The notes under the pieces were generated by a model that searched no databases, was not told where the DNA came from, and was given only the letters and a program-made list of their open reading frames with translations. From contig JACPXJ010000045.1 in NCBI GenBank assembly GCA_016196605.1, positions 1-60,958 of the forward strand: a DNA stretch of 60,958 nucleotides, written 5' to 3'. Source of the stretch: Candidatus Nomurabacteria bacterium. GTDB lineage: Bacteria; Patescibacteriota; Minisyncoccia; Phycocordibacterales; UBA9973. Position numbers and translations under genes: made by a program. This document shows positions 35,595-57,534 of this stretch, piece by piece (within the stretch, counting starts at the first letter, position 1; every line of letters starts with the position of its first letter).

Positions 35595-37406
35595 ATGAGT
35601 TCATCGGTTGATCAAATAAAATCAAGAATAGATATCGTCTCGCTCGTGTCTTCCTATATGAAGCTCGACAAGTCGGGGAAAAGCTGGAAGGGCAAATGCC
35701 CGTTTCACAATGAAAAAACGCCGTCATTCTTTGTTTCGCCGGAGCGGGGCAGCTATTATTGTTTCGGCTGCGGGGCTTCGGGAGATATTTTTACTTTTGT
35801 CGAAGAGTTTGAGGGGCTGGACTTTAAAGGCGCGCTCAAACTTCTGGCTGACCGAGCCGGAGTGGTTCTCGAAGTTTACAGCAGGGAGAAGCAGGAAGAT
35901 AAAAGCGAAAAGGAAAAATTGTGTGAGGTGATGGAAGAGGCTACGAATTTCTTTGAGACTAATCTTGAAAGTAATATACAAGCGCAAGAATATTTGAAAT
36001 CCCGCGGACTTACAGAAAAAACTATCAAAGATTTCAGGATCGGCTGGGCTATTCTGGATTGGCGAAAGCTATATGATCACCTCAAATCCAAAAACTTTAC
36101 TGATAAAGAAATAGAGCTTGCGGGGCTGGCCAAGACCCCCTCCGCCCTTGGCACCTCCCCCTTATTGAGGGGGAGGGAGGGTGGGGGTCGTATGTATGAC
36201 CGCTTTCGCGGCCGAATTATGTTCCCTATTTCTGATCCAAGCGGCCGAATTATTGCCTTTTCAGGGCGCATTTTGGCGGATGACCCTTCGACAAGCTCAG
36301 GGCAGGTGGTAAGTCAAGCCAAGTATCTAAACAGTCCGGAGACTCCGATCTTTAATAAATCTTCGGTGCTTTTTGGCATAGACAAAGCGAAAGAATCGAT
36401 CCGCAAGAATAATTTTTCAATTCTGGTCGAAGGGCAGATGGACTTAGTCTTATCGCATCAGGCGGGATACAGAAATACGGTAGCCACTTCCGGTACCGCC
36501 TTGTCTGACTCTACAGTTTCCAAAGAAAATGTTATTTCGAATTTAGGGCTGGTACGCCGGCTTTCGCCCAATATTGTGCTCGCATTTGATGCCGATAAAG
36601 CGGGTTTCAACGCCGCTAACAGGGCCGGCAGGATCGCCCTATCCCTCGGCATGGATGTAAAGGTGGCGTCTTTGCCCGAAGGAGTCGATCCGGCGGATCT
36701 TATCTCAAAAAATGGAGGTGATGCATGGAAGGAAGCGATTAAAAATTCCAAGCATATTATCGAATTTATTCTTGGAAAGGTGATAAAAGACGCAGGAGAA
36801 GACACCCGCAAGGCTGGTAGACTTATCCGGGAAAAAGTATTACCTTATATAGATGCGATTGAAAGTTCAATCGAGCGGATGCACTTTCTTAAAAAGACAG
36901 CCGATGCTTCGGGGATAGGAGAGCAAGCGCTCAAGGATGATCTGGAGAAGGTAGCCCGGGATCAGAGGCATGAGAGGCGCGAGATCGAAGAAGCCAAAGA
37001 GTTTTCGAGAGAATCCAGAAAGGAATACATCTTAAGGAAACTGCTGGGGATTATTCTTTGGCAAAAAAGTTTGAAAGATAGCATTGCGGATCCGGATAAG
37101 GTAATGGAAAAAGTTAATCTTATTTTGAACGCGAGCAAGCAGGAATTATTGGAAAAAATAAAAACGAGCAGGGGAGATTTAATTTTCGAAGCAGAGGTGT
37201 TTTATGGGGAAAAGAAAGATAATTTAGAAAAAGATGTGAGCGAGCTTCTAAGAAATCTTGAAAAAGAGCATCTGAATGAAAAATTAGGGTTAAAAATGAG
37301 GGAATTGCATCATGCGGAAGAGATGAAAGATGCGGCAAAGTCTGAATTGATCATGAAAGAGATAAAAGAAATTAGCGCCAGAAAAGAAGAAATAAATAGG
37401 ATATGA
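35595..37406 (+). CDS. dnaG: DNA primase
   Basis: Zn ribbon [11 protein letters not shown]...CFGCG, RNA polymerase domain and Toprim (EGQMD, DADKAG). Confidence 0.93.
36134..36190. repeat. P element, in-frame in dnaG
   Basis: gaccccctccgccc-ttggca-cctccccctt-att-gagggggagg-gagggtgggggtc. Translated as [18 protein letters not shown]. Confidence 0.8.
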
Positions 37407-47750: not shown

Positions 47751-48537
47751 GAAAACTAAACAGAAAAAATTTCTTCGCATAGGCCTAGCGGTCGTCCTTC
47801 TTGTTGTCCTGTTTTATTTTCGTTCCGGGATTTTCGGCGGCCTCTCTAGTGTTGCCCATGTTGTTTTTCGTCCTGTATTAATTTTAGGCGAGAGTATAGG
47901 AGAAAAAATAAAAAACATCGGGAATTTCTTTGCTTCCAAGAATTATTTAGAGGATAAGATAGAGAATCTAGAGTCAAAAATATCCGAGGGGGAGGGAAGA
48001 ATATCCAATTACAATTCTATTCTTGCGGAGAATCTTTCTTTGAAGGAAATTCTTGGCAGAAAAAATTTGAAAACCGAGATGATTCTCGCTGCGATTTTAG
48101 CGAAGCCGAATCAGAGTCCCTATGACACTCTCTTGATCGATATCGGAGTGAACGAGGGAGTAGAAAAAGGGGATATGGTTTTCGCGCTTATGGATGTTCC
48201 GCTTGGGGTTGTTTCTGAAGTTTACGCGAATACTTCAAAAGTGATTTTATTTTCATCAGCAGGCGTCAAAACGCAAGCGATAATCGAAAAAAATATTTTT
48301 GTGGAGCTTGTCGGGCGGGGCGGGGGCAATTTTGAAATGATATTGCCGAGAAATTTTACTCCGGAGAGGGGCGACGAGGCGGTGATCCCCGGCATCATGC
48401 CGTATGCGCTGGGAGTAGTCGAGACGATAATTTCCGATCCGCGCGATCCCTTTGTCAAAGCTCTGCTCGTCTCTCCCGTCAACATCCAAGAACTCAAATT
48501 CGTGCAAGTGGAGAGGTCCCGAGATCAGCCGAGATAG
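47731..48537 (+). CDS. mreC: rod-shape-determining protein MreC
   Basis: N-terminal TM helix, coiled coil, and beta domains (GDMVFA...GVVSEV, GDEAVIPG...LGVVETI). Overlaps the mreB end. Confidence 0.85.
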   Translation: MSYLLDKKTKQKKFLRIGLAVVLLVVLFYFRSGIFGGLSSVAHVVFRPVLILGESIGEKIKNIGNFFASKNYLEDKIENLESKISEGEGRISNYNSILAENLSLKEILGRKNLKTEMILAAILAKPNQSPYDTLLIDIGVNEGVEKGDMVFALMDVPLGVVSEVYANTSKVILFSSAGVKTQAIIEKNIFVELVGRGGGNFEMILPRNFTPERGDEAVIPGIMPYALGVVETIISDPRDPFVKALLVSPVNIQELKFVQVERSRDQPR

Positions 48538-48570
48538 GTTTATTTTTCGACCTATCTCGGCAGTTTTTTT
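48518..48570 (+). terminator. Z element copy 1, doubling as the mreC terminator
   Basis: ccgagatcagccgagatagg-tttatttttcga-cctatctcgg followed by cagttttttt. Supplies the last mreC codons (SRDQPR*). Confidence 0.7.
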
Positions 48571-48615
48571 ATCTCCTTCTCCTTTACAAGGAGAGGGTAA
48601 GGTGAGGTGAATTCT
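48571..48615. repeat. P element, intergenic
   Basis: atctccttctcctt-tac-aaggagagg-gtaaggtgaggtgaattctc. Confidence 0.8.
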
Positions 48616-48695: not shown

Positions 48696-48767
48696 TTCGC
48701 AATATTAAGCTGGAGATTTATTTTTTGAACAAACCTTCCTAAACCATTTTCTATTATCTTTTTCTTG

Positions 48768-48811
48768 CCGAGATCAGCCGAGATATCTTGAAAACAAAGA
48801 ATATCTCGGTC
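48768..48811 (+). repeat. Z element copy 2 (left boundary of the giant-gene segment)
   Basis: gccgagatcagccgagatatc-ttgaaaacaaaga-atatctcggtc. Confidence 0.8.
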
Positions 48812-48817
48812 ATTACA

Positions 48818-48917
48818 GCTAGGGCAGTATAAAAAGGGTACGCATAAAATTCTACTGAATTTTTGCGCTGGGTACGGCCTACCCGGCCTGCGTAGCCCCT
48901 TTTTATACTGCCCTAGC
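48818..48917 (+). repeat. X element copy X1 (about 26-bp outer stem, conserved core)
   Basis: gctagggcagtataaaaagggtacgc ... gcgtagcccctttttatactgccctagc. The core contains aaaattc-tact-gaatttt and tacccggcct. Confidence 0.75.
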
Positions 48918-48943
48918 TTTCATAAATCTTGCATTACTAAAAA

Positions 48944-49084: not shown

Positions 49085-49143
49085 CTGGAGTTATCCACAT
49101 ATCTTGCTACTTTTGCACTTGTTATCAAGGTATAATTAACACA

Positions 49144-52100
49144 ATGGATTCAGGTATATTTTCGCAAAATAATTCTAGTGAAAAAAAATATATCTCGACT
49201 AAGGAGGCGAGTATCCGTACGGGCTACTCCAAAGACTACATCGGGCAGCTCGCTCGGGCAGGAAAAATCGATTCCAAGAAAATTAATCGCGCCTGGTATG
49301 TGGAAGAAAGTTCGCTGTTTAGCTACAAAGACGTATCGGCTGAATTAAAGAAAGAGAATGGAAAAATTTTTGCTGAAGCAAATTCTCCTCTTGCGATTCC
49401 TCCCCTCCTTGTGGAGGAGGGGGTAAGGGGTGGTGATTCAGAAATTACCACCTCGCCCTTCGGGCACTCCTCCTTCATCAAGGAGGAGAGGGTAGCAGAA
49501 ATTTCCGATGTCTCTTCGGTTTTGAAAGTTTATCAGCACCAGCCGCAAAAAAATTATTTGGGCAAGCAAATTTTTTCAAAGTCGAGGGAGTTCCTCACCA
49601 TCGTCCTCACAGTCGGCGCGGCCGCGGGCATCATCTATGCGAATAATTTAAAACTCCCGAATTTTTTACAGGATTTTATCGGTCCGGAAAATTCTCAAAC
49701 TGCCAATACCATAGACTCCCTCAAAGATGCTTATGGGAATTTTGTTACCGATCCTGCGAATGCAAGCGTGAGCGAGAGTGTAGCGGTAAACATAAAGCAG
49801 GATGACTTGCTGAACGCTTACAAAAATTATCTAACCAAACCCGGGACCCCCTCTTCAATTCTCCCCCTTAACAAGGGGGAGAGGCCGAAGGCAGAAGGGG
49901 TAATTTCTTCTCTCCGCGCTGTCTCCCCGTCAATAAGCAATGCCAATCTGGTCTCCGCTATAAAAACTATTCTTGCCCAGAAAGAATTTCGGGATCAGCT
50001 TCGCGGACCGGAAGGACCACAGGGAGCATCGGGACTTCAGGGACCGCAAGGACCAACCGGAGTTCCTTCTATCTTTTCCATTCCCAGCGCGCCGACTGTC
50101 AACACTTTGGCTTATGTTCCCGCCACTGTCATTCCTCCCAATCCGTCGTCTAACTTTGCCGGCGCCACTTTGTTGGGAGCTACTAATCTATCTTCCGGCA
50201 GTTTTTCAACCACTACCGCCAGCATTGACACTTTGACGGTAAACGGGCAAGCCACCATTGGCGGAACATTAACAGTCACCGGCACGGCGACAATACCGAC
50301 CGTGGCCGCCACCGCTTCCACCACCGACACCCTCGCCGTGGGCGGGGGCTATGGCTCGACCGGAGCATCCATCTCGGCTATCGGCGACATTGAGGCGAAT
50401 GGCGCGCTCACTATAGACGGCGCTTCCACCCTGACCGGCTCGACAGTGATCGGCTCGGCCGCTTCGTCCACCACCACCATCGGCTCGACCACGACCCCGG
50501 GAGCGCTCACTTTGCGCGGAGCCACAACTTTGGATAATAATTTTTCGCAGACCGGCGCGAATACTTTCAGCACCGGCACGGGAGCGATCAGCCTAAACGG
50601 CGCGACCACGGTAACCGGCAGTAATACATTTGCAACCGGTACCGGCGCAGTCACGTTCAATAACGTCACCACAAACATCGCTTCTGACAATCCAATTATC
50701 GATCTTACTTCCGCCACGACGCTCTCTATCAACACCACGACTAACCGCCCGATAACCACCGGCACCGGACTCTTTACCGCCGGCGGCGATGTAACCATCG
50801 CCGGCACCACCGGCGCCACTCTCTCCGGTATCGGCGCGGGCATCACTTTCACCGGCACCGGCAATCACGACATCACCGCAAGTTCCGGTACTTTGCGTAT
50901 CGGATCAAATACCATCATCGGCAGTATCGAAGCGCTGGACGAAACGGTAGACATCGGCACGCCCGCTGTCCGTTTTGATAAATTTTACGCGAATGAAGTG
51001 AATGCGACGACCCTGGTCGGAACTATCACCGGAGGAAACTCCTCCGCCGAAACTTTCACCATCAATTCCGACAATGCCACCGCCGACACTGAAAATTCCT
51101 ATCTCTCTTTTGAAAGAGGCTCCAGCATTCCGAACGCTCTCCTCGGCTGGGATTCCACCAATGATGAGTTTGATTTGAATTCTGGGCTAAATGTTACCAA
51201 TACTATTGGATCAGCTGCGCATTTGCGACTGAGTTATGACGCTTCCAACTACAATAGTTTCACCACATCTTCGACCGGAGATCTGGCGATTAGTTCAACA
51301 GGTACCAATGGAAACATCACTTTAACTCCAAGCGGAACAGGCAAAACCGTCATCGCCTCAAACAGCACCTCATGGACGTATGCGTCCACAAATTTGACTC
51401 TGTCCACCCGCAGTAATGGCAGAGGATTGACGTTTGCGACCACGGATGCCAATGACTTCACCCTTTCGGTGTTCAGGAATTCAATACCGGCGGCGCCTAC
51501 AGGCATTACAGCGCTGGAATTTGAGGGGCTGGACGATGCCGGCGGATCAGTCGCTTATGGACAATTGACCGTTAATGCAACGGACATTGCCGCGGCCACT
51601 GTTACAGGAGAAATGGTGCTGTCGCTGGAAAAATCCAATGTGCATTCTCATGTTCTCCGTGTCCAACCAGCGACCATCCGGTTTTTCAATACTCGCACTA
51701 GCGATACCGTTTTCGAAGCGTTGCAACTCGACTGGACATCGAACATAGCGCGTATTTTCACTAATTATTCCGGCGGCGGTTCGGCGCGCGCTCTGCAACT
51801 TGGCGGCGGCGGCAGCACGCAATGGGAGTTTGCGGATGATGCGACCGGGTTCCGTCCGCTGACGGATGATTCGTCGTCCACTGGATTGCTTGGTACCACC
51901 ACGAAGCGAGTTTACCACGGGCGTTTTGGGACTGGCGGTGTGTGGATTGGCAACATGACGAGCGCGGCGGGTTTGCTCAATGTGCGTTCTTCAAGTGGCG
52001 GAACTTTTCGCGTCGACGCAACGTCCGGTGCGGCTTCTATTACGGACACCACCGCCTCCTCCTCCACCACCACTGGATCGCTCATCAACGCTGGAGGGTT

Positions 52101-55100
52101 TGGGAATGCGGGGGCGGCGTATTTTGGGGGAGCGTTGAATGTGGCAGGAACAACGGGTTCAACTTTTACTCCATCTGCTGCGGCAGATATGACCCATACC
52201 TTTACGTCCGCCAACGATGCAAACTTTGTAAGACTCTTTTTCGGACGTGCTTCGGCTACGGCTATGATTGGCGTAGCTGCAAGTGCCGCACAGTTTACGA
52301 CCTCGGATGTGGCGGGTGACCTGACCATTCGAAATGCTTCTGGCAAAATAAATTTCTCTAATGATGGTGGCATAACTACTGGAATGTCTTTGGGAGCTAG
52401 CAATCTTCTGACCCTCACCGCCGACCTCACCGTCACTGGTGGGAATGTGGGGGTGGGGACGGCGACAGTCGCATCACAGGCAATTCGTCTTGGTTCTACT
52501 GGGCTTACAGGGACAACTCAATATGGTATTGCCAATGTTATCGTGTTTGATAGTACGGTGGCGACTGTTGCAGCGCATGGAATTTATCTTGGCCAAAGAA
52601 CAGCGGCGACCCCTGGCACATTACCTGTAAGTGATTCTATCTTTATTGATGGGCCGACCATCGGATCTTCATCTGCTATCACAACCAACACCGGGTTGAG
52701 GATCGCCAACCAAGGCGCAACAGGCATCACTAACGCCTACGGCATAGACATCGCCGCACAGAGTGGTGCCGCGACAGTGAATGTGGGATTGAGGAATGCG
52801 GGGACGACGTTGCTTACCAATACTACAGCTTCAACCTCTTCGGCTACCGGAGCGTTGCAAGTTTCCGGCGGCGTTGGCATCGCGACGGCCGTCACCACAG
52901 CAACCAGCATGGGTCTCAATGTTGCCCATACTGGAGCCATCACCGGCACAGGATACGGAGGATATTTCAGCAAAACAGGCGCAAGCACGACCAATGTGGG
53001 GTTGTACGCCACCGCCTCGGGAGCCACCAACAACTACGCGGCTATTTTTGAAAGCGGCAATGTCGGTATCGGGACGACAGCGCCAAGCACGAAATTACAT
53101 ATCAGTGGAACTGGAAGTGGCACATATCTAAGAATAGAAGAGACTACGGCCGGTGAAGAAACCACGATTCAGTTGTTAGGTGACGCAACCAGAAAGAACT
53201 GGGAAATCGGCAAACAGCAAATAGGTAATGCTTTAACCTTTGCTTCTTCTACAGCAAATGGAGGTACGACTTTCACGAATTATAGGATGACTATTTTAGA
53301 TACAGGAGAAGTCGGCATCGGGACGACGAGTCCGGCGGGACTTCTCCACGTATCTTCCGACACCGTGGACTTAGGCAAAGGATATTTCACGCAAGCCAAC
53401 GCTTCCGCCGACAGCTTTGACTTCAACTTTAGAAAAGCGAGAGGCACGGGAGCCGTACCCACCGTCATCACCACTGCCGATGAACTGGGAGTTATCAACT
53501 TCACCGGCTACGGCGGAGCGGCCGGATACATTACCGGCGCCGCCATCAAAGGCATATCGAGCGGCACCATCGCCGACTCCAGAGTTCCCGGACAATTATC
53601 CTTCTGGACAGGCACCGACGCCGCGCCTTCTGTCTTGACGGAGAGAATGAGAATAGATAACGCGGGACAGGTGAATGTTTTGGCTACCACCGCCTCCACT
53701 TCCTCCACCACCGGCTCCCTCATCAACGCCGGAGGGTTTGGGAATGCGGGGGCGGCGTATTTTGGGGGAGCGTTGAATGTGGCAGGAACAACGGGTTCAA
53801 CTTTTACTCCATCTGCTGCGGCAGATATGACCCATACCTTTACGTCCGCCAACGATGCTAATTACGCACGCTTAAACATAGGCCGCGCATCAGCATCATT
53901 CATGCTTGGAGTGGCCGCTTCACTAGGACAATTTATCGCAACCGATGCGGCTGGGGACGCTGTGATTAGGACTCTGTCGGGGAACATCAATTTCTCAAAC
54001 GATGGTGGTGCAACACTGGGAATGCGGTTGGGGACGAGTAATTTGCTGACACTCGCTGGCGACCTCACTGTCACTGGCGGGAATGTGGGGGTGGGGGCGG
54101 CGACGAATTCAAGTATCGGCGTATTTGTCACTGGTGCGTCTCTGCTGAGCGGGGTTTCTCAGACTGGACTCTACAGTGACTCAACTTTCAGCAGTGCCGC
54201 TACCACATCTGCTCAGGCGGGACGATTTGAAGTCAGGACTGCAGCGGCTTCGTTTACTGTAACTAATGCTCGTGCATTGTTTCTCGTGGCTCCAACATTA
54301 GGGTCTGGTTCTGCTATTACGAACAACTATGGTATTCAGATACAGAATATGGGCGCGACAGGCGTTACCAATGCTTACGGCCTCGACATAGCAGCACAGT
54401 CCGGCGCGGCGACGACGAATGTGGGATTGAGGAATGCGGGGACGACGAGTCTGCTGGCCCAGCTTTCCGTTTCACTAGACCTAGCTTCCGATTATGCCGC
54501 CACTTTCTTCAACGATGGCAACAATGCCAACCGGAGCGGACTCTTGGTCAAAGCCGGCCTGGATGACAGCACCCTCGCCGGACCTTCCACCTTAATTGAT
54601 TTCCAAGACGGGGATGGCGGCGCGATCGGTTCCATTTCTTTCGGCTCTTCCGCCACCGCCTACAACACCACTTCCGATGAACGCTTGAAGAATCTAGTTA
54701 ATGAACAAACTACTTCTTCCCTTAACATCTTAAATCAAATCAAAATACATGATTTCACCTGGAAAGACGATGTCAGCAGCAATCTCTATACCGGAGTCTT
54801 CGCTCAAGAGCTCTACACTATCTATCCCCACGCCGTTACCAAGCCGATCAATCCTGCCGACAGCTGGATGGTGGACTATTCCAAACTCACTCCGGTCATG
54901 ATCGCTTCTATTCAGGAGCTGGATCTTACCCTAGAGGGACTGGAGGAGAGAGTGGCGGCCCTCGAAGAGGGCAGTCCTTCGTTGGGTTCAGGATCTTCGA
55001 GTATTTTAGACACGGTGAAAAACTGGCTCGCCTCTGCGGGGAACGGCATAACCGATATATTTGCCGGAACGCTTCACGTGACAAACCAGCTCTGCATCGG

Positions 55101-55536
55101 CAATACCTGCGTAAACGAAGCTCAGCTGCAGCAGATTCTGCAGAGTACTGGGCAAGCGAGCGCGAACAGTTCTTCTTCGACAAGCGGAGGGGGAAGCACA
55201 ACCGATACTACAGATACGACCCCCTCTGACTCCCCCTTAGCAGGTGGAGAGGAGACCCTCACCCCCGACCCCTCTCCATCTACGGATGGAGAGGGTGGCA
55301 AAGCAGTAGCAGAGCCGGGTGAGGCAGATCCTACAACCACGATTTCAGAAGAAACCACGACGACTCTCTCCGCCTCAGCTGAGGAGGGGGCCGCGCCAGA
55401 GGGCGGGCAAGCAGGGGGTGGTGATGTTACAACCACGGATTTGACTCTTTCGGCTGACTCAGGGCAAGCAAGCTCAACAGAGGCAACACCAACTCCGGAA
55501 CCAACTCCTGCACCTACCCCTGAAGTAACCCCGTAA
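49144..55536 (+). CDS. giant (2130 aa) membrane-anchored fibre protein: N-terminal HTH, TM helix, collagen-like triplets, repetitive T/G/S/A-rich region, S74-type intramolecular chaperone domain and a low-complexity tail
   Basis: HTH-like YISTKEASIRTGYSKDYIGQLARAGKIDSKKINRAWYV. TM helix FLTIVLTVGAAAGIIY. GPEGPQGASGLQGPQGPTGVP. Repeated GNVGIGTT motifs. TSDERLKN...VFAQELYTIYPHAV...VDYSKLTPVMIASIQEL. Confidence 0.85.
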   Translation: MDSGIFSQNNSSEKKYISTKEASIRTGYSKDYIGQLARAGKIDSKKINRAWYVEESSLFSYKDVSAELKKENGKIFAEANSPLAIPPLLVEEGVRGGDSEITTSPFGHSSFIKEERVAEISDVSSVLKVYQHQPQKNYLGKQIFSKSREFLTIVLTVGAAAGIIYANNLKLPNFLQDFIGPENSQTANTIDSLKDAYGNFVTDPANASVSESVAVNIKQDDLLNAYKNYLTKPGTPSSILPLNKGERPKAEGVISSLRAVSPSISNANLVSAIKTILAQKEFRDQLRGPEGPQGASGLQGPQGPTGVPSIFSIPSAPTVNTLAYVPATVIPPNPSSNFAGATLLGATNLSSGSFSTTTASIDTLTVNGQATIGGTLTVTGTATIPTVAATASTTDTLAVGGGYGSTGASISAIGDIEANGALTIDGASTLTGSTVIGSAASSTTTIGSTTTPGALTLRGATTLDNNFSQTGANTFSTGTGAISLNGATTVTGSNTFATGTGAVTFNNVTTNIASDNPIIDLTSATTLSINTTTNRPITTGTGLFTAGGDVTIAGTTGATLSGIGAGITFTGTGNHDITASSGTLRIGSNTIIGSIEALDETVDIGTPAVRFDKFYANEVNATTLVGTITGGNSSAETFTINSDNATADTENSYLSFERGSSIPNALLGWDSTNDEFDLNSGLNVTNTIGSAAHLRLSYDASNYNSFTTSSTGDLAISSTGTNGNITLTPSGTGKTVIASNSTSWTYASTNLTLSTRSNGRGLTFATTDANDFTLSVFRNSIPAAPTGITALEFEGLDDAGGSVAYGQLTVNATDIAAATVTGEMVLSLEKSNVHSHVLRVQPATIRFFNTRTSDTVFEALQLDWTSNIARIFTNYSGGGSARALQLGGGGSTQWEFADDATGFRPLTDDSSSTGLLGTTTKRVYHGRFGTGGVWIGNMTSAAGLLNVRSSSGGTFRVDATSGAASITDTTASSSTTTGSLINAGGFGNAGAAYFGGALNVAGTTGSTFTPSAAADMTHTFTSANDANFVRLFFGRASATAMIGVAASAAQFTTSDVAGDLTIRNASGKINFSNDGGITTGMSLGASNLLTLTADLTVTGGNVGVGTATVASQAIRLGSTGLTGTTQYGIANVIVFDSTVATVAAHGIYLGQRTAATPGTLPVSDSIFIDGPTIGSSSAITTNTGLRIANQGATGITNAYGIDIAAQSGAATVNVGLRNAGTTLLTNTTASTSSATGALQVSGGVGIATAVTTATSMGLNVAHTGAITGTGYGGYFSKTGASTTNVGLYATASGATNNYAAIFESGNVGIGTTAPSTKLHISGTGSGTYLRIEETTAGEETTIQLLGDATRKNWEIGKQQIGNALTFASSTANGGTTFTNYRMTILDTGEVGIGTTSPAGLLHVSSDTVDLGKGYFTQANASADSFDFNFRKARGTGAVPTVITTADELGVINFTGYGGAAGYITGAAIKGISSGTIADSRVPGQLSFWTGTDAAPSVLTERMRIDNAGQVNVLATTASTSSTTGSLINAGGFGNAGAAYFGGALNVAGTTGSTFTPSAAADMTHTFTSANDANYARLNIGRASASFMLGVAASLGQFIATDAAGDAVIRTLSGNINFSNDGGATLGMRLGTSNLLTLAGDLTVTGGNVGVGAATNSSIGVFVTGASLLSGVSQTGLYSDSTFSSAATTSAQAGRFEVRTAAASFTVTNARALFLVAPTLGSGSAITNNYGIQIQNMGATGVTNAYGLDIAAQSGAATTNVGLRNAGTTSLLAQLSVSLDLASDYAATFFNDGNNANRSGLLVKAGLDDSTLAGPSTLIDFQDGDGGAIGSISFGSSATAYNTTSDERLKNLVNEQTTSSLNILNQIKIHDFTWKDDVSSNLYTGVFAQELYTIYPHAVTKPINPADSWMVDYSKLTPVMIASIQELDLTLEGLEERVAALEEGSPSLGSGSSSILDTVKNWLASAGNGITDIFAGTLHVTNQLCIGNTCVNEAQLQQILQSTGQASANSSSSTSGGGSTTDTTDTTPSDSPLAGGEETLTPDPSPSTDGEGGKAVAEPGEADPTTTISEETTTTLSASAEEGAAPEGGQAGGGDVTTTDLTLSADSGQASSTEATPTPEPTPAPTPEVTP
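49396..49496. repeat. P element inverted pair (tails facing inwards), in-frame in the giant ORF
   Basis: cctcccctcc-ttgt-ggaggaggggg-taaggggtggtgattc aga aattaccacctcgccc...ctcctcctt-catc-aaggaggag. Confidence 0.75.
49847..49905. repeat. P element, in-frame in the giant ORF
   Basis: accccctcttc-aat-tctccccctt-aac-aagggggaga-ggccgaaggcagaaggggt. Translated as TPSSILPLNKGERPKAEGV. Confidence 0.8.
52093..52220 (+). repeat. 128-nt block identical to 53731-53858 (internal duplication of the giant ORF)
   Basis: ggagggtttgggaatgcggggg...gtccgccaacgatgc read identically at both places. The offset is 1638 nt (in-frame). Confidence 0.85.
53731..53858 (+). repeat. second copy of the 128-nt identical block
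   Basis: See 52093-52220. Confidence 0.85.
55218..55299. repeat. P-like elements in the C-terminal tail of the giant ORF
   Basis: gaccccctctgactccccctt...; cctctccatc-tac-gatggagagg. Translated as [27 protein letters not shown]. Confidence 0.6.
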
Positions 55537-55580: not shown

Positions 55581-55844
55581 ATGAAAAATTTGAGAAACCA
55601 AAATTTAACATTTTCGATAATTGTTGAAAAAGACAACAACGGCTATTTTGCTGAGTGCAGGGAGCTTCAGGGATGCTATACAGAGGGTAAAACATACGAA
55701 GAAGCGATAAAAAATATCAAAGAAGTTATCGAACTCCACATCGAAGATAGAAAAGAACGCGGGGATTTTAAGGTTCTGCAAAATCAAAAAGATCATGTTT
55801 CTCTAACTACTTTTTCTATCTCTGTGCCGCAGTATGTCTCCTAA
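55581..55844 (+). CDS. hicB: HicB-family antitoxin
   Basis: FSIIVEKDNNGYFAECRELQGCYTEGKTYEEAIKNIKEVIELHIE (UPF0150/HicB fold pattern). Confidence 0.85.
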   Translation: MKNLRNQNLTFSIIVEKDNNGYFAECRELQGCYTEGKTYEEAIKNIKEVIELHIEDRKERGDFKVLQNQKDHVSLTTFSISVPQYVS

Positions 55845-56061
55845 ACAAATACCCAAAAATTGCAAGCAGTTAATAACCTTAGCGGAAAAAGCTGGTTTTG
55901 TGTTTTCTCGTCAGAAAGGATCGCATATGATTTTTTACCATGAGAGAGGTCTTAGGTTAACTATTCCAAATCATGGAACAAAGGCTCTGCATCCAAAAAT
56001 AGTGAAAAGCGTTTTAAGAGACATTGAAAATGCAAGCTTATTTACTCACGACGAAGTTTGA
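55834..56061 (+). CDS. hicA: HicA-family mRNA interferase toxin
   Basis: LITLAEKAGFVFSRQKGSHMIFYH...LTIPNHGTKALHPKIVKSVLRDI. Overlaps hicB by 11 nt. Confidence 0.85.
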   Translation: MSPKQIPKNCKQLITLAEKAGFVFSRQKGSHMIFYHERGLRLTIPNHGTKALHPKIVKSVLRDIENASLFTHDEV

Positions 56062-56107
56062 AACTAAGTTTTGTAGTTGTTAGATCTTGCCTTACAATTT
56101 TAATACA

Positions 56108-56151
56108 GCCGAGATATCTTTAAAAGACAAGCTATCTCGGCTGATCTCGGC
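56108..56151 (-). repeat. Z element copy 3, inverted (right boundary of the giant-gene segment)
   Basis: Reverse complement gccgagatcagccgagatagc-ttgtcttttaaag-atatctcggc matches 48768-48811. Confidence 0.8.
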
Positions 56152-56167
56152 GTGGAAAATTCAAAAG

Positions 56168-56197
56168 TCCCCTTGATAAGGGGGATTTAGGGGGTTA
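56168..56197. repeat. partial P element, intergenic
   Basis: gtcccctt-gat-aaggggga-tttagggggtt. Confidence 0.6.
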
Positions 56198-56208
56198 TAT
56201 TTGAATCA

Positions 56209-57534
56209 ATGCATTTTGAGATAAAGAAAAAACTAAAGAATAGTCTCGGTCGCGCTGGAGTTTTAACCACAGCTCATGGAGCCATAGAAACTCCGGCCTT
56301 TGTCTCAGTTGGCACAAAAGGAACAATAAAATCTCTAAACCCAGAGCAGGTAAAAGAAGCTGGAGCGCAGGTAGTTCTTGCGAATACTTATCATTTATAT
56401 TTGCAGCCCGGAGACGAGCTGGTGCGGGATGCCGGCGGACTGCATAAATTTATGAATTGGCCGGGACCTCTCATGACCGACTCCGGCGGCTTCCAGGTTT
56501 TTTCTCTCGGCGCGGCTTATGGCAAGGATGTCTCCAAGATAATACCCCTACCCAACCTCCCCCTTAATAAGGGGGAGGAGAAAGGAGGGGGTCCGGAACG
56601 TTTTGACGATTCGGCTGCCCCTCGTTTGGCAAAAATCGGGGCTGATGGCGTTTCCTTTAAATCGCACCTTGATGGTTCTATTCATTACATTACTCCGGAA
56701 AAATCAATCCAGATCCAGCACAATCTCGGCGCGGATATAATTTTCGCTTTTGATGAAGCCACCAGTCCAGCGGAGGATTACAAATATCAGGAGGAAGCTC
56801 TTGCCCGCACTCATGCTTGGGCGAAGCGAAGTCTAGAACATCATCAGAAATTATGTTTCACGCCAGAAGCTTTCTTTTCGGGGTCGCCATTTTCCTGCTG
56901 GAAAATTTGGCTCCATCCTCAGCTCGCCAGCCTGCGGAGACCCCGCAAAGAAACTTCTGTCGCTTCACATCCTGCGCTTTTTGGCATAGTTCAGGGCGGA
57001 CTGGAGAAGAATCTGCGCAAAAAGTCAGCGGAATATATCGGGAGCCTGCCTTTTGATGGCTTCGGCATCGGCGGCTCATATACCAAGGAGCACATGGAAG
57101 TAGTGGTTAAACTCGTAAATGAAATCCTGCCGGAAGAAAAGCCTCGCCACCTGCTCGGCATCGGCGAGCCGGAGGATCTTTTCATGGGCGTGGAAAATGG
57201 CGTGGATCTTTTCGACTGCGTGGCGCCGACTCGTCTCGGCAGAAACGGAACTATTTATACCCACCAAGGAAAAATGATTATTATGAATAAAGAATTTAGA
57301 AAAGATTTTAATCCCATCGAGTCTGATTGCAGTTGCTACACTTGCAAAAATTATACTAGAGCATATGTTGCTCATTTATTTCACGGCAAAGAAATGCTCG
57401 CTGGGACTTTGGCTTCAATCCACAATTTATATTTCATCGTCAACTTGGTGAAAAATATCCGGCAATCTATTCTCGACGAAAATTTTTTCGAATTTAAGGA
57501 GGAGTTTTTAAAAAATTACAGGAAGGTAAAGTAA
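56209..57534 (+). CDS. tgt: queuine tRNA-ribosyltransferase (with two repeat-derived insertions)
   Basis: TPAFVSVGT, LANTYHL, LMTDSGGFQVFSL, ALFGIVQGG, GFGIGG, CxCxxC Zn site (CSCYTCKNYTRAY). Confidence 0.93.
   Translation: MHFEIKKKLKNSLGRAGVLTTAHGAIETPAFVSVGTKGTIKSLNPEQVKEAGAQVVLANTYHLYLQPGDELVRDAGGLHKFMNWPGPLMTDSGGFQVFSLGAAYGKDVSKIIPLPNLPLNKGEEKGGGPERFDDSAAPRLAKIGADGVSFKSHLDGSIHYITPEKSIQIQHNLGADIIFAFDEATSPAEDYKYQEEALARTHAWAKRSLEHHQKLCFTPEAFFSGSPFSCWKIWLHPQLASLRRPRKETSVASHPALFGIVQGGLEKNLRKKSAEYIGSLPFDGFGIGGSYTKEHMEVVVKLVNEILPEEKPRHLLGIGEPEDLFMGVENGVDLFDCVAPTRLGRNGTIYTHQGKMIIMNKEFRKDFNPIESDCSCYTCKNYTRAYVAHLFHGKEMLAGTLASIHNLYFIVNLVKNIRQSILDENFFEFKEEFLKNYRKVK
56543..56594. repeat. P element, in-frame in tgt
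   Basis: acccctacccaa-cctccccctt-aat-aagggggagg-agaaaggagggggtcc. Translated as IPLPNLPLNKGEEKGGGP. Confidence 0.8.
56864..56959 (+). repeat. X element copy X5, in-frame in tgt (96 nt)
   Basis: Arms cagaagctttcttttcggggtc / gagaccccgcaaagaaacttctg. Core attttcc-tgc-tggaaaat...tcgccagcctgcg. Translated within CFTPEAFFSGSPFSCWKIWLHPQLASLRRPRKETSV. Confidence 0.75.

Follow-up and report, generated by a model that had tools for sequence, protein, structure and literature searches.

A giant Candidatus Nomurabacteria protein with an HTH head, a predicted membrane anchor and a non-terminal Peptidase_S74 domain: a candidate surface fibre

The eukaryotic membrane-bound transcription factor MYRF is arranged as DBD-ICA-TM, with its DNA-binding domain (DBD) and its ICA domain both in the cytoplasm, and the cut frees the DBD. 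In RodZ, a cytoplasmic helix-turn-helix (HTH) binds MreB, while Xis, RdfS, BldC, RacA and TraN are soluble DNA-binding proteins. Collagen-like runs and S74 domains are both trimer-forming. Very large surface proteins of Patescibacteria have been reported as candidate host-interaction factors (e.g., PMC13059738), and the adhesin-type domains listed for such giants include fibronectin III, integrin and concanavalin A; we found neither an N-terminal HTH anchor nor an S74 ending in the literature on these proteins, and no published description of the HTH plus transmembrane (TM) anchor module presented below.

The gene lies in a 60,958-nt stretch of DNA (the window) from Candidatus Nomurabacteria (Patescibacteria), an ultra-small bacterium. 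The ORF at 49144..55536 (+ strand, as are all coordinates given here), to which an earlier reading of the sequence alone (the sequence-only reading) had drawn attention, starts with ATG and encodes 2130 aa plus a stop codon; its NCBI name is 'tail fiber domain-containing protein [Candidatus Nomurabacteria bacterium]'. The order of parts is HTH, TM helix, G-X-Y run, body, S74 domain and about 170 further residues, and all four earlier domain calls (HTH, TM helix, collagen-like run and non-terminal S74) were correct. The head (49183..49341, aa 14-66) is a winged helix-turn-helix of the excisionase/MerR (HTH_17) type, predicted to be cytoplasmic. In the window protein the Pfam HTH_17 match (aa 16-61, 22.3-23.9 bits) falls under the gathering score of 27; HTH_17 is matched by 29 of 31 family members (best E 1.4e-7). 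AlphaFold assigns a pLDDT of ~95 across aa 11-65, in the order strand-helix-helix-strand-strand-helix, and the modelled HTH superposes on Pukovnik Xis (rmsd 1.4 A, target TM-score 0.70, probability 1.0) as well as on RdfS, BldC, RacA and TraN, with Foldseek E-values that are weak for this 50-residue domain (0.04-0.6). The family matches, the fold and the Xis superposition uphold the proposed excisionase/MerR-type HTH. The family signature reads YIS..A...GY..DYIGQLAR.GKI....G..WYV, and because the presumed recognition helix 'DYIGQLAR' is near-invariant over thousands of proteins, one common ligand would be expected, whether DNA in general, a single shared DNA site or a single conserved protein; paralogue-specific operators would not be expected. 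The head is followed by a variable cytoplasmic linker (49342..49578, aa 67-145), into which hairpin elements have been inserted in frame at 49402-49422 and at 49467-49488; homologues have neither insertion. Another in-frame hairpin element at 49860..49882 is translated as LPLNKGERPKAEG, and hairpin-element-derived stretches occur around 55235-55310 in the C-terminal tail, confirming in tail and linkers the hairpin repeats earlier called 'P-element' repeats.

A single transmembrane helix (49579..49647, aa 146-168; modelled by AlphaFold as helix 145-168) is the predicted signal anchor, oriented N-in. A Kyte-Doolittle scan agrees with the earlier claim of one hydrophobic helix and no signal peptide: within the first 60 aa the top score of any 19-residue window is -0.41, and the sole strong hydrophobic window of the whole protein is aa 151-169 (1.58), a value that makes the segment, which is short, only moderately hydrophobic, a point against the anchored-fibre reading given below. 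Three K/R residues precede the helix and one follows it. Homologues carry their TM helix at the corresponding place; in relatives that lack the HTH, a TM helix or signal peptide is found at aa 10-38 instead. These features suggest a type-II (N-in) topology. The predicted extracellular juxtamembrane region (49711..49842) contains two 'AYKNY(L/V)xP'-type motifs (aa 190-205 and 219-233), of which homologues have 2-5 copies. Seven collagen-like G-X-Y triplets follow at 50005..50067 (aa 288-308), exactly where they had been placed before. The run is short and its position is conserved in 11 of 14 relatives, for which reason it is probably a trimer clasp and not a stalk. The fibre body (50074..54672, aa 311-1843, about 1530 aa) has zero matches in Pfam, PHROG and PDB. 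It had been described as T/G/S/A-rich repeats; the composition holds (54% T/G/S/A), but 'repeats' was an overstatement. Tandem Repeats Finder detected no tandem repeats, and the body contains four GNVG(I/V)G motifs (starting at aa 1100, 1305, 1388 and 1646) and one duplication of ~276 aa (copy A, 52006..52833, aa 955-1230; copy B, 53647..54474, aa 1502-1777). The copies are offset by 1638 nt, range in DNA identity from 95% down to 71%, and have in common an exact 128-nt stretch at 52093 and 53731.

The Peptidase_S74 intramolecular-chaperone/autoprocessing domain, including its helical coiled-coil part, spans 54673..55023 (aa 1844-1960), with a predicted scissile Ser1844 (54673-54675) and Lys1849 (54688-54690) as the other member of the predicted dyad. 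The earlier assignment is upheld by three methods. Pfam PF13884 hits aa 1844-1898 and, at 36.8-40 bits, clears its gathering score of 22; a profile built on this part of the protein matches the solved chaperone domains 8jov (3e-16) and 6f45 (1e-13), as well as the MyRF ICA domain 7dc3 (7.5e-10), T5 pb1 (8hqz) and phi29 gp12 (3gud); and Foldseek matches the modelled S74 to 7dc3 (E 2.7e-5). Across 10 aligned relatives the S-D-x-R-x-K motif never varies at its Ser, Asp and Lys. The premise of a normally C-terminal position for S74 holds only in part. The fold has ~120 aa, of which the Pfam model covers no more than the initial ~58. Residues beyond the domain are present as claimed, but the chaperone fold itself reaches about aa 1960, which leaves an excess of ~170 aa and not 200 or more. 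It comprises a conserved post-S74 module (55015..55146, aa 1958-2001, WLAxAGNGIxxIFA...LCIxxTCxxEAQLQ), found in at least 12 relatives and containing the only cysteines of the whole protein (Cys1984 and Cys1989), and an acidic T/S/P/E-rich tail (55153..55533, aa 2004-2130). AlphaFold modelling was of the monomer only and gave low confidence for the post-S74 part. Past Ser1844 there is a conserved Cys-loop module here and an Ig-like domain in relatives, which is odd content for a throwaway chaperone; the S74 domain may be uncleaved, or the released fragment may have a role of its own.

The HTH+TM head belongs to a family of 8183 clusters (E<=1e-3) found at 586 or more genome loci; the best 80 of these carry Patescibacteria or unclassified 'bacterium' labels, bar one labelled Gammaproteobacteria. 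It has zero matches in 50,697 phage records and a single, weak and partial match in IMG/VR. The head is an apparently undescribed membrane module that is widespread in Patescibacteria. It precedes two kinds of protein, long fibres and short proteins of ~300 aa with nearly no ectodomain, the latter forming the majority of the family. The usual locus follows obg-gatB (some relatives adjoin prfB-ftsEX instead), where the gene is partnered by either a short paralogue or a MerR gene of ~80 aa that points the other way; the window copy lacks both partners. Among the best 80 loci, 27 have the small divergent MerR gene upstream (as do L001 and L002), at least 24 have short and long HTH-TM genes side by side, the long genes having an HTH and a TM helix of their own, and secA is nearby in 31. 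The HTH-TM-S74 architecture recurs, as the sequence-only reading had proposed to check, in other giant Patescibacteria proteins: P0021-25, 30, 32, 33, 37, 38, L006 and L072 combine an HTH (aa ~9-61), a TM helix, S74 and a 100-290-aa tail. In relatives both ends, anchor and chaperone, are conserved and colinear, and the middle is variable. In other giant relatives a different DNA-binding-type head stands ahead of the TM helix: MerR in P0031 and an integrase SAM-like head in P0043.

The surroundings of the gene are core chromosome (mreB, mreC, hicBA and tgt), and phage genes are absent from the whole 61-kb window. GC3 of the giant gene is 0.54, inside the core-gene range of 0.42-0.63; the adjoining hicBA toxin-antitoxin pair has low GC3, and a 45-nt element lies on either side of the block formed by the giant gene and hicBA. 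The gene is directly downstream of mreB-mreC, and a terminator-like hairpin with a T-run 3' of mreC (48528..48571) indicates that it is a separate transcription unit. No Shine-Dalgarno sequence precedes the ATG, and a consensus promoter scan did not find a full promoter. A TATAAT hexamer can be read at 49131..49136, ending 7 nt ahead of the ATG; its position and the absent Shine-Dalgarno sequence suggest that the mRNA may be leaderless.

The best explanation, in which we place moderate confidence, is that the protein is a type-II membrane-anchored, probably homotrimeric surface fibre, folded from its C-terminal end and self-cut by S74. Here we infer each of trimer formation, S74 cleavage and adhesion, the trimer being proposed because the collagen-like run and S74 are both of trimer-forming types. 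The N-terminal ~145 residues (winged HTH and variable linker) would be kept in the cytoplasm, one TM helix would anchor the chain, and the other ~1960 residues would be exported. The S74 domain would then trimerise and nucleate folding of the beta-rich fibre, with the short, membrane-proximal collagen-like run perhaps acting as a clasp. A cut at Ser1844, using Lys1849, would split off a 287-aa fragment (chaperone, Cys-loop module and acidic T/P/E tail) and leave aa ~1780-1843 exposed as the new distal tip, which would bind a surface, most plausibly that of a host or partner cell. A tail-fibre-like adhesin would fit all findings, namely the organism, the phage-free core-chromosome site, and the conserved ends with a variable middle. 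The 'receptor-binding tip' is argued by likeness to phage fibres, the body being in no known family.

The sequence-only reading had offered as an alternative a ToxR-like regulator freed by S74 autoproteolysis. This is contradicted by the topology and was rejected: the TM helix sits between the HTH and Ser1844, so the membrane separates HTH from S74, and cleavage would shed just the extracellular C-terminal 287 aa. A membrane-tethered transcription regulator would instead need a site-1/site-2 cleavage of its own, in the TM helix or close to it, after which the HTH would act on DNA and the fibre would serve as a contact or force sensor, comparable to RsgI/SigI, ToxR/CadC or Notch-type signalling. 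A DNA-binding-type fold cytoplasmic of a single TM helix, the different DNA-binding-type heads of other giants, the divergent MerR genes and the tandem-HTH short paralogues, which resemble the dsDNA-binding protein TraN, are all consistent with it. However, the near-invariant presumed recognition helix is unlike that of sequence-specific regulator families, most family members have hardly any ectodomain for sensing, and neither a protease partner nor a DNA target was identified; we consider such a regulator unlikely, and it would supplement the fibre reading, not supplant it. The near-invariant surface residues could equally indicate a single common partner, the HTH being a protein-docking domain that couples the cytoplasmic end of the fibre to paralogues or to a conserved machine; RodZ sets the precedent, and MreB, SecA, the divisome or the short HTH-TM proteins would be candidate partners. 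The position next to mreBC, the adjacent short and long genes and the proximity of secA point this way, but the mreBC neighbourhood is confined to the window, a terminator-like hairpin intervenes, the HTH of RodZ is Xre-type and not HTH_17, and secA/gatB linkage may be just ancestral housekeeping synteny. This docking role too seems improbable.

Far less credible is the idea that a tail-fibre gene of a phage or prophage, or one captured recently, lies in the chromosome by chance. Such an origin could account for the matches of the C-terminal 321 aa to PHROG tail-fibre families (up to E 4e-23) and of the S74 region to 191 phage records, and for the low-GC3 hicBA pair and the flanking 45-nt element; against it stand the phage-free window, the core-like GC3, an anchor all but unmatched among phage sequences, and the relatives at a conserved housekeeping locus across Patescibacteria. 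An assembly or gene-calling artefact, either an HTH-TM gene fused to a fibre gene or a miscounted 1638-nt unit, is given equally little weight. The exact 128-nt repeat inside otherwise diverged copies, the separate short HTH-TM genes often just upstream of fibre genes, and the breakage of relative L002 into five ORFs could suggest one, but copies A and B are distinct (71-81% identity on both flanks), the frame stays open for 6.4 kb, long genes beside short ones have their own HTH and TM helix, and a continuous HTH-TM-collagen-fibre N-terminus of 380-670 aa is colinear in seven independent relatives from different samples. A fusion artefact is very unlikely, and the protein is not chimeric, the same ends occurring in at least 10 other giant Patescibacteria proteins.

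Compared with known systems, the surface fibre proposed here can be set beside phage tail fibres and tailspikes (endosialidase K1F/endoNF, phi29 gp12 and T5 pb1), with which it shares a long beta-rich fibre that ends in S74 with its Ser-x4-Lys dyad, GNVGIGTT-type motifs, and conserved ends around a variable middle. Unlike these, the Nomurabacteria gene is cellular and chromosomal, its N-terminus has a predicted cytoplasmic HTH and a TM helix where the phage proteins have a baseplate-attachment domain, and ~170 residues with a Cys-loop module, covered by no phage match, follow the chaperone. MYRF, too, has a DNA-binding-type domain and a TM helix together with an S74/ICA that is not terminal, and its ICA is the best structural match; however, the order here is HTH-TM-fibre-S74, so that the predicted cut is extracellular and the HTH stays, and the DNA-binding domain is HTH_17 and not Ndt80-like. 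The cytoplasmic N-terminal HTH, one TM helix and extracytoplasmic C-terminal part recall RodZ and ToxR/CadC-type bitopic proteins, and in the window alone the likeness to RodZ extends to a place beside mreBC, a linkage not conserved in relatives; the HTH is excisionase/MerR-type whereas those of RodZ and ToxR are Xre- and OmpR-type, and the ectodomain is a ~1960-aa fibre. In fold and size aa 14-66 resemble Pukovnik Xis, RdfS, BldC, RacA and TraN, and the tandem HTH copies of short paralogues resemble the internal dimer of TraN, but the Nomurabacteria HTH is fused to a membrane anchor and has its own near-invariant signature, DYIGQLAR. Finally, the giant surface proteins reported from Patescibacteria are likewise large, carry a TM helix or signal sequence, and are predicted to lie at the surface.

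The open reading frame at 49144-55536 (+) is real and encodes a giant protein of 2130 aa, for which NCBI holds an identical entry named 'tail fiber domain-containing protein [Candidatus Nomurabacteria bacterium]'. Its surroundings are those of a core chromosome, the window also containing ligA, a UvrD/PD-(D/E)XK helicase-nuclease, gyrB, thrS, an SMC-like ATPase, RNase R, rpoB, rpoC, dnaG, rpoD, mreBC and tgt. A class II aminoacyl-tRNA synthetase, mreB and mreC lie upstream of the giant gene, in that order, and hicB, hicA, tgt and an Orn/DAP decarboxylase gene follow downstream. A prophage origin was considered and rejected, since no phage genes are present in the 61-kb window and GC3 is normal. 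The terminator-like hairpin found 3' of mreC indicates that the giant gene forms its own transcription unit, and a TATAAT hexamer ending 7 nt 5' of its ATG, combined with the lack of a Shine-Dalgarno sequence before that ATG, hints at a leaderless mRNA. An Rfam scan of the whole window returned two tRNAs and nothing else.

The sequence-only reading had proposed an N-terminal excisionase/MerR-type HTH, and this is borne out at the level of the family and by the modelled fold, the window sequence itself scoring below threshold with Pfam HTH_17 (aa 16-61, 22.3-23.9 bits against a gathering score of 27). HTH_17 is matched by 29 of the 31 family members at E<=0.01 (best 1.4e-7), and many homologues carry a precomputed PF12728 match. 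The N-terminus also gives weak matches to PHROG excisionase families and to NCBIfam TIGR01764, the latter being the only NCBIfam match of any kind, with none for the whole protein or its C-terminus; a PDB profile search with the N-terminal alignment returned no match. An AlphaFold model based on 22 aligned relatives has a pLDDT of ~95 over aa 11-65, where the order strand-helix-helix-strand-strand-helix corresponds to a strand-helix-helix-wing fold, and places a further helix at aa 145-168. The closest superposition of the modelled HTH is Pukovnik Xis (rmsd 1.4 A, target TM-score 0.70, probability 1.0), and other excisionase/MerR-type winged helices (RdfS, BldC, RacA and TraN) also superpose; Foldseek E-values for these matches are weak (0.04-0.6), as expected for an HTH of only ~50 residues. 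A net charge of about +5, counted from the sequence, is compatible with DNA binding but is not evidence for it. The first 60 aa hold no hydrophobic stretch, the sole strong hydrophobic window in the whole protein is at aa 151-169, and three K/R residues precede this helix versus one after it. As had been suggested from the missing signal peptide and single helix, the predicted topology is thus most likely N-in, with the HTH in the cytoplasm.

Seven G-X-Y triplets follow at aa 288-308, as originally described, and the run is kept at the equivalent position in 11 of 14 relatives. It is too short for the Pfam collagen family PF01391, which gave no match at E<=1. The fibre body beyond it (about aa 311-1835) matches nothing in Pfam, PHROGs or PDB, and a sequence search of the full-length protein against PDB likewise found no match. 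Its proposed T/G/S/A-rich character holds (54%), while its proposed repetitiveness holds only in part: Tandem Repeats Finder detected no arrays in the gene, there are four GNVG(I/V)G motifs in the protein, and there is one internal duplication of ~276 aa (aa 955-1230 versus 1502-1777, offset 1638 nt) whose copies fall from 95% to 71% DNA identity. A 128-nt exact stretch common to both copies is the sole spot where the assembly might be doubted; the copy number is at stake there, and the architecture is unaffected.

At the other end, the Peptidase_S74 domain seen in the earlier reading scores above threshold (PF13884, aa 1844-1898, 36.8-40 bits against a gathering score of 22). Its motif S1844-D-E-R-L-K1849 places the catalytic Ser and Lys five residues apart (S-D-x-R-x-K), and Ser1844, Asp1845 and Lys1849 are invariant in 10 relatives. 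The best structural match of the modelled region is the MyRF ICA (7dc3; Foldseek E 2.7e-5, probability 1.0), with 3gud and 3gw6 also matched and a beta part plus long helix present in the model. A profile of ten relatives matches the solved chaperone domains 8jov, 6f45, MyRF ICA 7dc3, T5 pb1 8hqz and phi29 gp12 3gud, and matches to PHROG tail-fibre families cover aa ~1826-1942 and extend no further. Because the chaperone fold, including the long helix, extends to about aa 1960, the residues in excess of a terminal S74 domain number ~170 rather than the ~200 first estimated. This excess opens with a module, WLAxAGNGIxxIFA...LCIxxTCxxEAQLQ, that contains the only two cysteines of the giant protein and lies at a fixed distance after the chaperone in at least 12 relatives, as counted by an HMM search of a retrieved set of related proteins. 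None of the phage matches to the S74 region covers it, and we found no description of it in literature on Patescibacteria giant proteins, tail fibre or S74. The module is followed in relatives by a Bact_surface_Ig-like (PF16403) domain and a P/E/T-rich tail, and in the window protein by a P/E/T-rich tail only. A subset of Patescibacteria fibres ends in a phage-type, predicted self-cleaving chaperone extended by a conserved extra module.

The same architecture recurs in at least ten other giant Patescibacteria proteins (P0021-25, 30, 32, 33, 37, 38), which have the HTH at aa ~9-61 and, in most, a TM helix at aa ~75-175. Many giant relatives also share juxtamembrane 'AYKNY(L/V)xP' motifs, and in many the S74 domain lies 100-290 aa before the C-terminus. 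Over the first 380-670 aa and the last ~170-250 aa these proteins are colinear with the window protein, but not in the middle; a fibre whose anchor and assembly module are conserved and whose binding region varies would show this pattern. Since both ends are colinear with giant relatives (the N-termini in seven), artefactual fusion of an HTH-TM gene to a fibre gene can be dismissed; of the chimerism that the sequence-only reading had warned of, only the copy number at the repeat is left in question. The closest double-HTH relative, P0001 (locus L002, 10001-20508), is broken up into five successive ORFs (379, 874, 522, 879 and 635 aa), the last bearing the S74 and Ig-like domains, and is either a pseudogene or the product of long-read assembly frameshift errors. 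Two further giant relatives carry other DNA-binding-type domains before a TM helix at aa ~170-200, namely a MerR domain (PF00376/PF13411) in P0031 (3562 aa) and a phage-integrase SAM-like N-terminal domain (PF13495/PF02899) in P0043 (2455 aa). Cytoplasmic DNA-binding-type heads on giant surface proteins may be a more general theme.

The HTH-TM head extends far beyond giant proteins. A search with the first 280 aa returned mostly proteins of ~300 aa in which the HTH is present once or twice and a TM helix lies close to the C-terminus, and a family profile of the HTH domain, built from 31 sequences and searched against 1.84 billion cluster representatives, matched 8183 representative clusters at E<=1e-3 and 4529 at E<=1e-10. 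The domain lies at aa ~5-65 and bears the signature YIS..A...GY..DYIGQLAR.GKI....G..WYV, with eight invariant positions; the window ORF scores 93.7 bits against this profile and has its TM helix at the equivalent position. HTH module loci were confirmed in species-representative genomes at least 586 times, and the labels of the best 80 are all Patescibacteria or unclassified 'bacterium' except for one Gammaproteobacteria, which is probably mis-binned. The HTH-TM module found no match in 50,697 phage genomes and one, weak and partial, in 2.9 million viral contigs. The 107 HTH-bearing ORFs in the best 80 loci are of two kinds: short ones of 250-350 aa with a TM helix near the end, and long ones in which a large ectodomain comes after a TM helix at aa ~90-190 (complete ORFs include ones of 3303, 2673, 2519, 2139, 1080, 988 and 764 aa; ~50 more end at contig ends, leaving their lengths incomplete).

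Upstream neighbours of the module among these 80 loci are gatB (64), obg (58), secA (31) and murB (19). Short and long HTH-TM genes are adjacent in at least 24 of the 80. In many Patescibacteria the short gene comes first, after obg-gatB and immediately 5' of the long HTH-TM-fibre gene, and its ~300-aa product combines a single or double HTH with a C-terminal TM helix (for example L079, L026, L071 and L053 within L005-L084, as well as L003 6001-9184 and L004 6001-8547). The short proteins P0004, P0007 and P0008 share the ending W(I/F)VPE(I/L)xYxR or similar. A divergent MerR gene of ~80 aa lies immediately 5' of the HTH-TM-fibre gene, ~350-700 nt upstream, in 27 of the 80 loci (L005-L084) and also in L001 (7383-7622, -) and L002 (9361-9609, -). 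Its product is highly conserved (YITIKQASxILGVSPLTLRNWDKxGKLxALRHPMNNYRVY) and is likely a dedicated regulator. The window contains no gatB, obg, secA, short HTH-TM paralogue or MerR gene, and the 606-nt spacer 5' of the giant gene showed no degraded MerR gene. We accordingly read the window copy as an out-of-locus paralogue, or else the canonical locus lies beyond the reach of the contig. Fibrous surface proteins, S74 endings and the NCBI tail-fibre-domain label were already known. Literature on Patescibacteria giant proteins, tail fibre, S74 and HTH+transmembrane yielded no prior description of a phylum-wide HTH-TM head, nor of a conserved locus at which it is paired with short paralogues or a small MerR gene.

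Several additional elements were noted in the window. A long, very stable hairpin at 48817-48919 in the 606-nt spacer (27-nt arms, 93% complementary; RNA minimum free energy -62.1 kcal/mol, z-score -8.8) matches no Rfam family, has no second copy in the window, and occupies the position held in the closest relatives by the divergent small MerR gene. Directly 3' of the giant gene, the hicB-hicA toxin-antitoxin pair (55581-56061) was probably acquired horizontally, given its GC3 of 0.29-0.36 versus 0.42-0.63 in surrounding genes. An element of ~45 nt, consisting of CCGAGATCAGCCGAGATA and a hairpin after it, has just three copies in the 61-kb window, against 0.05 expected by chance, at 48519-48567 (+), 48759-48809 (+) and 56102-56159 (-); they flank the giant gene plus hicBA, with opposite orientations on the two sides. 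The first also serves as the mreC terminator, and the copies could mark a mobile or recombined cassette. The 'P-elements' noted in the tail of the giant protein correspond to short pyrimidine/purine hairpins (stem 8-9, loop 4-7, e.g. CCCCTCCTTGTGGAGGAGGGG), often followed by GG-rich sequence; inside genes they sit in frame and are translated. They occur in the giant gene (49402-49422, 49467-49488, 49860-49882 and ~55235-55310), within housekeeping genes (1260-1284 and 2307-2358 in ligA, 36154-36176 in dnaG, 56556-56578 in tgt) and between genes (48575-48610 and 56168-56200). The stretches they encode are missing from homologues of the giant protein, and the elements resemble Rickettsia palindromic elements, which insert into coding sequence.

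Taken together, these data make it fairly probable that the giant protein is an N-in, trimeric, membrane-anchored surface fibre that is folded by its C-terminal S74 domain and cut at Ser1844; a collagen-like run and an S74 domain both imply a trimer, given what is established about those folds. The S74 domain would fold the fibre starting at the C-terminus and then cleave the chain at Ser1844, leaving a new distal tip to bind the surface of a host or partner. We infer the cleavage, the surface exposure and the binding. The 287-aa piece that would be released carries conserved extra parts and so may remain bound to the fibre or act in its own right, and cleavage could also be absent. A ToxR-like regulator set free by S74 autoproteolysis, the other possibility raised initially, is excluded by the order HTH (14-66)-TM (146-168)-S74 (1844-1960): with the TM helix between the two domains, the cut cannot release the HTH, and no hydrophobic segment follows S74.

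What the HTH itself does is a separate matter. The head might serve throughout the phylum to link extracellular fibres physically to the DNA or transcription of the cell, which we regard as unlikely. Contact or force on the fibre would then trigger regulated proteolysis that frees the excisionase-type HTH, or a trimeric HTH cluster would tether the nucleoid beneath the attachment site, with either the small divergent MerR protein or the short paralogue with tandem HTHs as partner; if true, ultra-small episymbiotic bacteria would have a signalling route of their own that responds to host contact. Contact-triggered release by a separate protease, taken on its own, is equally improbable. The presumed recognition helix is near-invariant across thousands of proteins, which argues against many specific operators and for one common partner, either generic or shared DNA or one conserved protein. 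A protein-docking role like that of RodZ is also doubtful, to the same degree. RodZ homology itself was rejected, since the HTH is of the wrong class (HTH_17-type) and the adjacency to mreBC is seen in the window only and in none of the 80 related loci.

A large part of bacterial diversity belongs to Patescibacteria, most of which are thought to live attached to other cells; to our knowledge, how they attach and how they sense attachment are largely unexplained. One cytoplasmic winged-helix and TM head is common to many of their surface fibres and to short relatives numbering in the thousands; it usually sits in a conserved housekeeping locus, has no phage-genome match, and its sampled labels are Patescibacteria or unclassified bar one. 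The Ser1844/Lys1849 dyad, the DYIGQLAR helix, the MerR partner and the short paralogue offer concrete, testable handles on the envelope biology of organisms that for the most part cannot be cultured.

The giant protein differs from each of the known systems that it recalls. A phage tail fibre is encoded with other virion genes, whereas the giant gene lies in a core chromosome and its N-terminal module has no phage-genome match. RodZ, which binds MreB, has an Xre-type HTH, unlike the HTH_17-type domain found here. MYRF offers the natural comparison, as the two kinds of domain are alike. Its order is DBD-ICA-TM, with DBD and ICA on one membrane side, so that the cut frees the DNA-binding domain; in the giant protein the TM helix precedes S74 and separates it from the HTH, an arrangement that bars cleavage from freeing the DNA-binding part.
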